Below, piece after piece: positions 9,607 to 12,197 of a stretch of 33,886 bases of DNA. The position numbers and the translations under genes are program-made. Position 1 is the first letter of the stretch; each line of letters opens with the position of its first letter. Source of the DNA: Pseudomonadota bacterium (GTDB lineage: Bacteria; Myxococcota; JACRCW01; JAFGSX01); the NCBI GenBank assembly GCA_043821645.1, contig JBDRCO010000060.1:1-33886 (forward strand), written 5' to 3'. The notes under the pieces are model-generated. The model saw nothing but the letters and a program-made list of their open reading frames with translations, searched no databases and had not been told where the DNA came from.

Positions 9607-9637
9607 AAAAAAGCCGGGGCCCTCGAAGGACCCCGGC
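9607..9637 (-). terminator. Rho-independent terminator
   Basis: The minus strand reads GCCGGGGTCC-TTCGA-GGGCCCCGGC-TTTTTT, about 27 nt after the stop of the 9665-10096 gene. Confidence 0.88.
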
Positions 9638-9664
9638 CTGAGAACAACGGTGGAGTGGAGCCAG

Positions 9665-10096
9665 CTAGTACCTGGCAGCCTGGGACTTGGCGAAGATCTG
9701 GGCGATGTTGGAGATGCCCTCGGGGGTGAGGCCGTTTTGCAGACCACCCACCGCGCTGTTCACGGTGTTGAGCAGGTCCACCGCCTTGCCGGCCTGGCTC
9801 GCGAAGCCCGCCAGCTGACCAAAGGCGCCCAGCGGGCCACCCGCCACAAAGGACAGCGCGCTGTTGAAGAACTTGTCGACGAAGGGCTTGAGCATCTTGC
9901 CGATGCCGCCGGGCAGCTTGTCCAGCATCCCCCCAAGCGCCTGCTTGAACGGCTCGGTGATCTTGTTGAGCATGGACAGGGGCTTCTGGATGAAGCTCAT
10001 GGCCTTGTTGGCGAAGCTGGTGATGCGACTGAGCGGCCGCGAGATGCTGCGTGCGATACCGCCCACCGCTCGACTGATGCTTCTGAAGAGTCCCAT
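9665..10096 (-). CDS. Small basic Gly-rich amphipathic-helical hypothetical protein (143 aa)
   Basis: GGGAGA RBS before ATG 10096. Begins MGLFRSISRAVGGIARSISRPLSRITSF. It has GC3-biased codons, no Cys, and a terminator directly downstream. Confidence 0.85.
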   Translation of the reverse strand: MGLFRSISRAVGGIARSISRPLSRITSFANKAMSFIQKPLSMLNKITEPFKQALGGMLDKLPGGIGKMLKPFVDKFFNSALSFVAGGPLGAFGQLAGFASQAGKAVDLLNTVNSAVGGLQNGLTPEGISNIAQIFAKSQAARY

Positions 10097-10248
10097 GGTG
10101 TCTCCCGTGTCCGCTGCGTTGTCTACGGATGGAGTATCGCCACGGGGGGCTGCCTCGTTGCGGTCACGACCGTCGGCCATGGGGAGGATAGGACAGGGGC
10201 CCACAGTGTGTGAGAACATCCCACCCCGGGGAGGTGGTGTGCAGAGGC

Positions 10249-10959
10249 TCACAGCTCCGACAATAACTTGTTCTTTTTCTTGGCGAATTCAGCACGCGTC
10301 AGCAGGCCAGCGTCATAGGCCTCCTTGAGCTGCTGCAGGCGCTGCGTGAGGCTGCCGCCCGCGGAATCGGCGCCGCGCTCCTCTCGGGCCTCCACCTCAG
10401 CGTCCTCCTGCTCGTCGTCATCGACCTCGTCGTTCTCGTCCGGAGCAGCCATTCCGTGACCCGGTGCCGCCTTGGTGCGCGCCTTGGTGGCCTCGGCCTG
10501 GATCTGCTTCGTGATCAGCCGGCCCTTTTCGTCCTTGGAGGTGTGGATGAGGCCAGAGCCCTCCTCTCCCATCCACGGGGCGAGGTCCGCCTCGACCTTT
10601 CCGGCAGCGATCCTGGCCTTCCGCCGGGCCGCGGCCTCGACCGAGGCAAAACGGCTCTTCACCTCCTCGGGACTCAGGGAGATCTCCCCGCGCTCCACCG
10701 CCTGGAGCCACTCGGTCATCTCCTCGACACTGGGCACATCGAGCTCGAAGCCCTCCTCGGCCAGCTTGGCCTCGTCGACGACGTACAGCTCCGGATCCTT
10801 GTCCGGATTCTCCACGTAGCCCATGACCATGTCCGCGTATTCCTCGAGTTCGAGCCCGAGCAGGTCGGCGATCTGCTTGGTCTCGGGATCCGCCAGCACC
10901 TCGGCGCGCACGACGCTGAGCGGTCGACCGGAGCCCCTGGATGAACCTTCTTTTGCCAT
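10249..10959 (-). CDS. Acidic hypothetical protein with C-terminal SHOCT domain
   Basis: Starts 8 nt after the upstream stop, with a GAGGTG RBS overlapping that stop. The C-terminal RLQQLKEAYDAGLLTRAEFAKKKNKLL matches the SHOCT pattern. An Asp/Glu-rich linker precedes it. Confidence 0.85.
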   Translation of the reverse strand: MAKEGSSRGSGRPLSVVRAEVLADPETKQIADLLGLELEEYADMVMGYVENPDKDPELYVVDEAKLAEEGFELDVPSVEEMTEWLQAVERGEISLSPEEVKSRFASVEAAARRKARIAAGKVEADLAPWMGEEGSGLIHTSKDEKGRLITKQIQAEATKARTKAAPGHGMAAPDENDEVDDDEQEDAEVEAREERGADSAGGSLTQRLQQLKEAYDAGLLTRAEFAKKKNKLLSEL

Positions 10960-10967
10960 CTCTCACC

Positions 10968-12197
10968 TCACGTTGCGGTGGCGGCCGCGCGCCGCCGCTC
11001 GCCCTGGACCACAGCATCGGCGAGCGTCAGCATCAGCTCCATGCCCACCATGGCCGTGCCATCGCCCATCTCCCCGGGCGCGGTGACCTCGACCAGGTCG
11101 GCCCCGACCACCACGCGCTGTTCCCCCACCTCTCGCAGCAGCTGCTTGACCTCGTGCGGCCACAGACCTCCAGGGACGGGAGTGCCGGTTGCCGGAGCAC
11201 AACTCGGGTCCACCACGTCGATGTCGATGCTCACGTAGTATACGAGGTTCTCGGGGAGGTGGTCGAGTACGGCGGCCGGACCCTCCCGGCGTAGCAGGTC
11301 CATGCCAACCTGCTGCACGCGTTCGGGCATGCCCTGGGCACCGAGGTTGGTGATGCCGCGGAGTCCGACCTGCAGGATGCGCGCGACGTCGGGAAGATGC
11401 TCGTGCACCCAGGTCATCACGCTGCCATGATGCAGGACATCGCGAGGGTGGGGCTCGTCGAGATCGGTGTGGGCATCGAGGTGCAGCAGCCCGATGCGCT
11501 TGCCCTCGAAGCCGCGCAGCACCGGATAGCTGATGGAGTGGTCGCCTCCCAGGACCAGGGGGATGGCGCCCGCCTGCACGATACGCCGAACCTGGCGCGT
11601 CACCCGCGCGTGAACCTCCGCTGCCTCCTCGCCAGGTTGAGCAAACACGTCGCCCGCATCGGCCAGGAGCACCCGCTCGAGCAGGGCGCGGCCCGCTCCG
11701 AAGTCGTAGAACCCCATGGGCAGCAGATCCACGGCGTCGAGCTGAAGCTGGCACGACGAGACGGCCTCACGCAGCACAGCCGGACCGAAGCGAGCTCCGG
11801 GGCGGCCTGAGGTTCCGCCATCCCAGGGCACTCCCAGAAACACGAAGGGCGCGGCGATGGCGTCCTCGACGAAGGGCGCCCCCAGCGCGGTGACCAGTGG
11901 TCGCACGCGCTCCGGGTAGAACTCGCGACCCTGCGCATCACGCTCGACCAGGACCCCGTGCTCGACGCAATCCTGCAAGAACTTCGTCGTATCGTGGCGC
12001 GCGAAGGGAAAGCGCTCGAGCACCTGCACCGGATCCGCGCCATCGATGAAGTGTTGAAGCAGCTGAACCTGGTAGCGCGTGGCATCGATGCTACGTCGCC
12101 AGTGCGGCAAGCGGAGCGTCACGCCCCCACCTGCACGGGGCAGGATCTCGAGGCCAGCATTGCGCACCAGGATGCGTCCCGGCGATGCATCGGACAT
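10968..12197 (-). CDS. Ureohydrolase (agmatinase/arginase family) with N-terminal RRE/PqqD-like extension
   Basis: GVPWD..S.RPGARFGP, GGDHS, DAHTD, HHGS, SIDIDVVDP, TGTPVPGG and DLVEV are present, so the Mn-ligand motifs look intact. Start at ATG 12197 after GGGGAGG. It carries about 90 extra N-terminal residues. Confidence 0.9.
   Translation of the reverse strand: MSDASPGRILVRNAGLEILPRAGGGVTLRLPHWRRSIDATRYQVQLLQHFIDGADPVQVLERFPFARHDTTKFLQDCVEHGVLVERDAQGREFYPERVRPLVTALGAPFVEDAIAAPFVFLGVPWDGGTSGRPGARFGPAVLREAVSSCQLQLDAVDLLPMGFYDFGAGRALLERVLLADAGDVFAQPGEEAAEVHARVTRQVRRIVQAGAIPLVLGGDHSISYPVLRGFEGKRIGLLHLDAHTDLDEPHPRDVLHHGSVMTWVHEHLPDVARILQVGLRGITNLGAQGMPERVQQVGMDLLRREGPAAVLDHLPENLVYYVSIDIDVVDPSCAPATGTPVPGGLWPHEVKQLLREVGEQRVVVGADLVEVTAPGEMGDGTAMVGMELMLTLADAVVQGERRRAAATAT

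Follow-up and report, generated by a model that had tools for sequence, protein, structure and literature searches.

Few enzymes are known that convert arginine to ornithine in a peptide after translation, and the conversion is wanted for peptide engineering. The OspR-type peptide arginases belong to Pfam family PF12640; OspR itself is a dimer formed through an inserted dimerisation domain (PMC10028609). Another precedent is KgrD, which belongs to enteropeptin biosynthesis, is a PF00491 arginase and has a peptide as its substrate (PMC12703449). Here we analyse three minus-strand genes in a 33,886-nucleotide (nt) stretch of a Myxococcota genome (assembly GCA_043821645.1, contig JBDRCO010000060.1, positions 1 to 33,886), called the window below. 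Spanning 12197-9665 (-), they encode, in order, an enzyme (P0001), an acidic protein (P0002) and a basic protein (P0003). P0001 appears to join an arginase-family domain to a fold like that of the RiPP recognition element (RRE), a domain of enzymes that make peptides synthesized on the ribosome and modified after translation (RiPPs).

We propose, with confidence that is evenly balanced, that P0001 is a PF00491 arginase guided by its RRE and turns Arg into ornithine on the amphipathic helix at the N-terminus of P0003; P0002 would be the ancestral acidic partner of the latter. The product of gene 1 would be a protein-directed arginase. Its N-terminal RRE-type domain would dock a protein partner, either P0003 itself or P0002 acting as its carrier, and its agmatinase-like domain, with a binuclear Mn site, would hydrolyse the guanidino groups of Arg on the helix to give ornithine and urea. 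P0002 and P0003 make up a two-gene module older than the enzyme, which most likely pairs an acidic chaperone or antidote and a membrane-active cationic protein. Helix positions encoded as Lys where the enzyme is absent are encoded as Arg where it is present, and these Arg would end as ornithine, a Lys-like amine.

The locus and its enzyme

The features of the locus are as follows.

10968..12197, minus strand: gene 1, P0001, fusion of a predicted RRE-fold domain and an agmatinase-like ureohydrolase, 409 residues (translation, PF00491, AlphaFold2 model)
11913..12185, minus strand: predicted RRE-like winged-helix domain of P0001, residues 5-95 (predicted secondary structure and VIA-align matches)
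11025..11846, minus strand: ureohydrolase catalytic domain of P0001, residues 118-391, with GGDHS, DAHTD and SIDIDVVDP motifs (Pfam, motifs, match to 1wog)
10960..10970, minus strand: stop codon of gene 1 and 8-nt spacer with the purine-rich ribosome-binding site of gene 2 (sequence)
10249..10959, minus strand: gene 2, P0002, acidic, 236 residues, isoelectric point (pI) 4.55 (translation)
10097..10248, minus strand: spacer between genes 2 and 3, 152 nt (sequence)
9665..10096, minus strand: gene 3, P0003, basic and amphipathic, 143 residues, pI 10.84 (translation)
10013..10096, minus strand: Arg-rich amphipathic N-terminal helix of P0003, residues 1-28, the proposed substrate segment (hydrophobic moment, alignment)
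9611..9639, minus strand: hairpin and T run resembling an intrinsic terminator, closing the three-gene unit (13 pairs, 9 of them G-C)

The initial annotation of this stretch had described three co-directional genes with spacings of 8 and 152 nt, a ribosome-binding site overlapping the first stop codon, and a strong terminator. The sequence bears out this layout. P0001 starts at an ATG preceded by GGGGAGG; the TGA of gene 1 is separated from the ATG of gene 2 by 8 nt (GGTGAGAG), with the purine run overlapping the gene 1 stop; and GGGAGA lies 6 nt ahead of the gene 3 ATG. A scan of the 152-nt spacer found no promoter-like site. The terminator is present as a 13-pair hairpin with its T run, though its folding is only modestly better than that of shuffled sequences (-27 kcal/mol over 76 nt, z -1.9). 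An upstream ATG that would lengthen P0003 by 28 residues was rejected: homologues begin MG(L/F), and one of them, at locus L188, has a stop codon two codons upstream of that start.

What kind of ureohydrolase is P0001? Pfam Arginase (PF00491) covers residues 118-391 with an expectation value (E) of 1.2e-64 and a score of 218.9 bits against a cut-off of 22, and about 70 full-length homologues of 390-430 residues match at 90% query coverage or more. The metal-binding motifs reported at the outset are intact: H220, D241, H243, D245, D325 and D327, which we take to be the ligands of the binuclear Mn site, are invariant in an alignment of 44 family members and align to the GGDHS, DAHxD and DxDxxDP motifs of 7esr and 3nip. 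We compared an AlphaFold2 model built on this alignment (mean predicted local distance difference test score, pLDDT, 91.4) with 48,161 representatives of the PDB using VIA-align. Its catalytic domain has the three-layer alpha-beta-alpha arginase fold and matches agmatinase 1wog at Z 37.0 (root-mean-square deviation 2.5, 288 aligned residues), with proclavaminate amidinohydrolase, guanidine hydrolase and metformin hydrolase at Z 33-35.

OspR, which had been cited at the outset as an example of a peptide arginase, turns out to be only a distant match. Its structure (8brp) matches the P0001 model at Z 9.6 only, over residues 210-397. PF12640 has no match in P0001 at E<=0.1; among the 44 relatives seven match it at E<=1, the best at 0.048 and none significantly. 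The EEH(N/H)EAF motif, as defined in PMC12703449, is not present in the P0001 sequence. By its Pfam assignment and predicted fold, the catalytic domain of P0001 is agmatinase-like PF00491 and not OspR-type PF12640. P0001 does not reach the NCBIfam agmatinase cut-offs either, scoring 136.1 against 174.3 and 167.2 against 302 (TIGR01230 / NF002564).

The RRE-like N-terminus that had also been noted is confirmed by predicted fold only. In the P0001 model, residues 5-95 form four short strands (9-12, 17-20, 26-30, 35-39), three helices (41-50, 56-62, 67-79) and one further strand. The best match of this domain is TigE (8vpo, Z 11.1, 86 aligned residues), ahead of MibB (5ehk, 9.5), MccB (3h5a, 9.5) and the RRE of PbtF (8t19, 9.3); TbiB1 (5v1u) follows at Z 7.6, and the lasso B1 protein 6jx3 and MadB (9g04) at 7.4 each. 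Eight of the 11 structural matches that cover the domain are RiPP or peptide-natural-product enzymes; Z values near 8 can come from common folds, and the model is itself a prediction.

Searches with the sequence of the N-terminal domain returned little. A PDB sequence search with the domain alone gave nothing below E 0.07, and phmmer against 1.84 billion representatives gave 10 matches, mostly fusions of about 400 residues or fragments, with no clear stand-alone form or other fusion among them. Many arginase-family proteins of other sources (among P0070-P0116) carry N-terminal extensions of 100-130 residues that match the P0001 domain profile weakly (E 5e-6 to 0.02). These extensions are unannotated and show a PqqD-like sequence pattern; one of the proteins is labelled Nocardiopsis. 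Fusions of an RRE and a ureohydrolase may be widespread. A literature search found, with the terms used, no description of an RRE-arginase fusion.

Distribution of the enzyme and of its partner genes

The fusion enzymes form one clade, set apart from four unfused agmatinase-like relatives with support 99/97. They occur in 12 of 401 genomes of the phylum. A separate unfused homologue of P0001 is encoded in the same genome as the window, on contig C65, and a scan of metagenome contigs gave only unfused arginase relatives among the matches listed.

We took 14 fusion-enzyme loci as a synteny sample and searched their six-frame open reading frames with jackhmmer. Thirteen are informative, L019 being left out because its sequence stops just past the enzyme gene; the sequence of L054, which is among the 13, stops inside its P0002-like gene. 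A P0002-like gene lies directly after the enzyme gene in nine of the 13 (the window, L015, L016, L017, L018, L054, L187, L188 and L190), and 5.4 kb from it in L014. In eight enzyme loci a P0003-like gene adjoins the P0002-like gene, on the same strand in five and convergent in L015, L187 and L188. Three groups of the phylum, each at family level, are represented among the enzyme loci. Because the three-gene linkage recurs across these groups, it is conserved and not due to chance.

This settles two points that had been left in doubt when the locus was first annotated. The linkage had been allowed to be coincidental, which it is not. Conservation of the neighbourhood had been named as the check to make, and the three-gene linkage does recur in three families, although some family members have neither partner nearby. 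The idea of an operon of one enzyme with two partners holds only in part: the linkage is conserved, but the acidic and basic pair is older and mostly lives without the enzyme, the P0003 family profile being found in 111 of the 401 genomes (about a quarter) and the fusion enzyme in 12.

The pair stays together whether or not the enzyme is present. A P0002-like gene adjoins the P0003-like gene in 27 of 30 fetched loci and in most of 20 more, and P0002-like genes precede P0003-like genes in genomes that lack the enzyme. Within group f11 the P0003 family is present in 94 of 172 genomes, and the fusion enzyme turned up in none of the 172. Nine of the 12 enzyme-positive genomes hold the P0003 family, against 102 of the 389 others (these genomes are related, not independent); the remaining three are G077, G115 and G138, and G138 is 88% complete, with a contig that ends inside the P0002-like gene. 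The acidic and basic pair is the older unit and the enzyme is an add-on, because the pair is old, widespread and mostly without such an enzyme.

The N-domain of P0002 (residues ~14-90) is helical and conserved; an acidic, disordered linker follows, and residues 207-233 match the SHOCT domain (PF09851, E 1e-7, with 31.9 bits where the cut-off is 27). The SHOCT assignment made at the outset therefore stands for the window's copy, but it does not describe the family: the other nine of 10 aligned P0002 sequences end before this tail. The P0002 model has a pLDDT of 74.9 overall and above 90 in the N-domain. Its fold matches gave nothing usable (best Z 4.1 with VIA-align; best E 1.8 with Foldseek against the PDB).

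P0003 belongs to an unannotated family spread through the phylum, and the candidate substrates in enzyme cassettes are 128-143 residues long. Its database homologues, among whose named sources are Archangium, Melittangium and Vitiosangium, are without exception labelled hypothetical and have no Pfam domain. PADLOC returned no match for P0001, P0002 or P0003. In PHROGs, P0003 (E 5e-4) and protein P0154 weakly match segments of phage tape-measure proteins, with E between 2e-4 and 5e-4, which probably reflects a Gly-rich hydrophobic composition; in the ESM Atlas the best feature score is 0.86 and the best template-modelling (TM) score 0.56, values that serve as leads only. Copies L212-L223 (f11, genus g81) carry a low-complexity N-terminal extension of about 50 residues in front of the conserved part, rich in Gly, Ser and Ala, with GGIGKA repeats. 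From charge, amphipathicity and co-occurrence, the two proteins are most likely an acidic chaperone or antidote and a cationic membrane-active protein.

Several enzyme loci contain further genes. In L188 (9323-10084, +) and L187 (1347-2105, -), from two related genomes, a protein of about 254 residues of the JmjC_2 (PF08007)/Cupin_8 type is encoded between the P0002-like and P0003-like genes; its PF08007 match has E 6.5e-19. Among the members of the JmjC_2 family are protein hydroxylases whose targets are ribosomal proteins. The protein encoded in L188 and L187 is a possible second protein-modifying enzyme of the cassette, and it would fit a cassette that modifies side chains. In L016 an Amidase (PF01425, E 4.6e-84; 9790-11268, +) begins at the stop codon of the P0002-like gene, where other loci have P0003. 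In L014 (G039), where the P0002/P0003 pair is 5.4 kb from the enzyme gene, that gene is immediately preceded upstream by three co-directional genes (3833-7951, +): one radical S-adenosylmethionine-like, with a CxxxCxxC motif seen by eye, one resembling oxidoreductases of the flavin adenine dinucleotide type, and one 3beta-hydroxysteroid dehydrogenase/epimerase (PF01073). The enzyme gene sits beside rsfS in L015, L016, L192 and L193, and in some of these also near a dapB, MarR-like or polyprenyl synthase gene; L192 and L193 keep this rsfS-type housekeeping setting without the P0002/P0003 pair.

Arginine and lysine in the P0003 helix

The six Arg of P0003 are residues 5, 9, 16, 20, 24 and 142. 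The concentration of five of them in the first 24 of 143 residues, reported in the initial annotation, was confirmed by counting; its probability by chance is 4.9e-4. Nowhere in the protein is the hydrophobic moment higher than in its N-terminal windows (0.67-0.79). Beyond the helix P0003 has 10 Lys and one Arg, and P0001 has 35 Arg and three Lys. Base composition therefore does not explain the cluster, since P0003 uses Lys outside the helix while the enzyme gene is rich in Arg.

For 51 copies of the P0003 family we tallied Arg and Lys over the first 30 residues, with these results.

Enzyme-associated copies (n=9): Arg 5-8 (mean 6.4), Lys 0-4 (mean 1.7)
All other copies (n=42): Arg mean 0.9, Lys mean 3.0

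Of the nine associated copies, eight sit next to the enzyme gene. The ninth, L203, lies on another contig of the genome of L016 and counts as associated because that genome has the enzyme and P0002 genes together without P0003 there. Among the 42 others, 40 have 0-2 Arg, with Lys at the corresponding positions. The 42 include two second copies from enzyme-positive genomes, both off the enzyme locus: L233 (0 Arg) and L234 (2 Arg). The nearest Lys-type relative of the window's P0003 is L207, at 45% identity. Here R5, R9 and R20 face K5, K9 and K20, R16 faces R16, and R24 falls in a four-residue insert. The 65 database homologues divide likewise into Arg-rich and Lys-type sequences, and five of them, placed heuristically on the same contig as an arginase match, have 3-5 Arg.

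How often has this change occurred? On the full-length P0003 tree the nine associated copies need four changes, of which at least two are forced by well-supported branches. A second tree was built from the last 100 residues after 12 rows had been dropped, nine of them near-identical and three (L228, L225 and L227_5788) on long branches; on this tree the window copy is the sole enzyme-associated row in a starred, that is well-supported, clade (96/80) of 19. The raw table of associated against other copies (9/9 against 1/30) gives p = 5e-8, a value that ignores relatedness. An Arg-rich N-terminus thus appears to go with the presence of the enzyme; the association is striking, and its phylogenetic support is thin.

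Alternatives and known systems

Could P0001 instead hydrolyse small guanidino compounds of the agmatine, guanidinobutyrate, guanidinopropionate or guanidine type, with a winged-helix N-terminal domain that serves oligomerisation or regulation and a functionally unrelated pair beside it? Its best matches are indeed small-molecule enzymes (guanidine hydrolase 7esr at E 7.8e-35, guanidinopropionase 3nip, and agmatinase 1wog at Z 37), the housekeeping setting of four loci would suit such a role, and three family members have no partner genes nearby. We nevertheless regard this as unlikely, though by no means negligible. P0001 falls below the agmatinase cut-offs, the genome already has a separate unfused homologue, and the predicted N-terminal domain resembles peptide-binding RREs best, rather than DNA-binding regulators. 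Nor would a small-molecule substrate explain the direct adjacency in nine of 13 loci or the Arg-for-Lys pattern.

A substrate other than P0003 must also be weighed. The enzyme might act on a protein or peptide encoded elsewhere, or perform another amidino or guanidino hydrolysis on a modified residue, and lie beside the pair for co-regulation only. The fusion enzymes of G115 and G077, where no P0003 family member was found, speak for this, as do the requirement of KgrD for a pre-modified Arg (PMC12703449) and the variable extra enzymes, JmjC_2 and Amidase, of some cassettes. But the cassette showed no other gene for a short precursor and the Arg-rich helix points to P0003, so that we give this possibility rather little weight. 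Very unlikely, in our judgement, is modification of P0002 in place of P0003. P0002 is the closest neighbour of the enzyme and always co-directional with it, directly following it in nine loci (after 8 nt here); L016 retains the enzyme and P0002 with P0003 not at the locus; and several enzyme-linked P0002 copies have Arg-bearing C-terminal tails. Yet no Arg is invariant in the P0002 alignment, the Arg of the N-domain motif VVRxxL is Lys or Leu in L017 and L054, and the family has, as judged by eye, no Arg/Lys switch comparable to that of P0003.

Several results weigh against the proposal that P0001 modifies the helix of P0003. The catalytic domain very closely resembles small-molecule enzymes (Z 34-37, with identity of about 30%) and is remote from OspR, and the RRE call has no sequence support: PqqD (PF05402) matches 0 of the 44 family members at E<=1. 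P0003 is on the opposite strand in three of its eight enzyme loci, and the fetched stretches of L192, L193 and L194 contain no P0002- or P0003-like gene near the enzyme. Two of the genomes of these pair-less enzymes, G115 and G077, have no P0003 family member that we could find, and the enzyme family must therefore have at least one other substrate. Conversely, L205 (G052, 5 Arg, 8 Lys) and L225 (G001, 3 Arg) are Arg-rich copies from genomes in which no enzyme was found, the latter genome being 82% complete. Because only two independent contrasts rest on starred branches, a sign test cannot reach significance. At 143 residues the candidate substrate greatly exceeds the usual RiPP precursor in size, and neither a conserved protease nor a conserved exporter/transporter was found flanking the cassettes. 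Judged from its genes, the cassette is not a classical RiPP cluster, since it has no conserved protease or exporter and its candidate substrate is a protein of 128-143 residues. Complex prediction of the enzyme with P0003, run without controls, scored 0.00 in both runs and bears neither way.

The proposal of an RRE-guided arginase acting on P0003 can be extended to the history of the module, in a form that we hold tentatively and with confidence somewhat short of even. Lineages that gained the RRE-fused PF00491 arginase would have recoded the Lys of an old antimicrobial-peptide-like helix as Arg, for conversion to ornithine. The enzyme would then be a third independent class of peptidyl arginase beside OspR-type PF12640 and KgrD, and it would be the first class to carry a recognition domain as well as the first whose target is a protein outside a classical RiPP cluster. 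If this is true, a ribosomal route to ornithine-bearing cationic helices, borne on a full-size protein, exists in some lineages of myxobacteria. An arginase that has a docking domain of its own and a helical substrate with several Arg would extend what is known of this enzymology and offer a programmable recognition handle, and this reading would give the first functional lead for an unannotated two-gene module present in 111 of 401 genomes.

Other genes of the window surround the locus. Downstream of the terminator lie a fusion of 2-thiouracil desulfurase and DUF1722 (PF04463 + PF08349; 8580-9530, -) and a CHAP/NlpC-P60 protein (7721-8413, -), neither of which recurs in related cassettes. The divergent neighbour at 12281-13537 (+) encodes a protein rich in Cys that begins like a lipoprotein and contains a run of Asp and repeats resembling Dickkopf_N (PF04706, E 2.9e-7; DUF7107). 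Further away, a 1350-residue open reading frame (3634-7686, +) opens with a signal-like stretch and contains many segments in tandem, each about 90 residues long.

How, then, does P0001 compare with described systems? By sequence and fold, its closest catalytic domains are those of the agmatinase, guanidinobutyrase, guanidinopropionase and guanidine hydrolase group (1wog, 3nio, 3nip, 7esr). Unlike P0001, these enzymes have no RRE domain; P0001 scores under the equivalog cut-offs, and the fusion family forms its own clade. With the RREs of RiPP maturases (TigE, MibB, MccB, PbtF, TbiB1) P0001 shares a predicted fold and an N-terminal fusion to a modifying enzyme, but its domain lacks a sequence-level PqqD match and is fused to a ureohydrolase.

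KgrD, as described in PMC12703449, is likewise a Mn-dependent PF00491 enzyme and turns Arg of a ribosomal peptide into ornithine. It differs in that it needs a thiomorpholine-modified Arg in a short sactipeptide precursor, whereas the presumed substrate here is a protein of 128-143 residues with several Arg on one helix. The OspR-type enzymes (PF12640; OspR 8BRP, FlmR, OhkR, PbsE) share with P0001 the proposed chemistry, the binuclear Mn site and the alpha-beta-alpha arginase fold. P0001 nevertheless belongs to another Pfam family, lies at Z 9.6 from 8brp against 37 from agmatinase, and lacks EEH(N/H)EAF; it also adds a predicted RRE fold, a domain that OspR lacks (PMC10028609, in whose text the term RRE does not occur). 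P0001 is thus peptide-arginase-like in the model proposed here, yet it is not a member of the OspR family.

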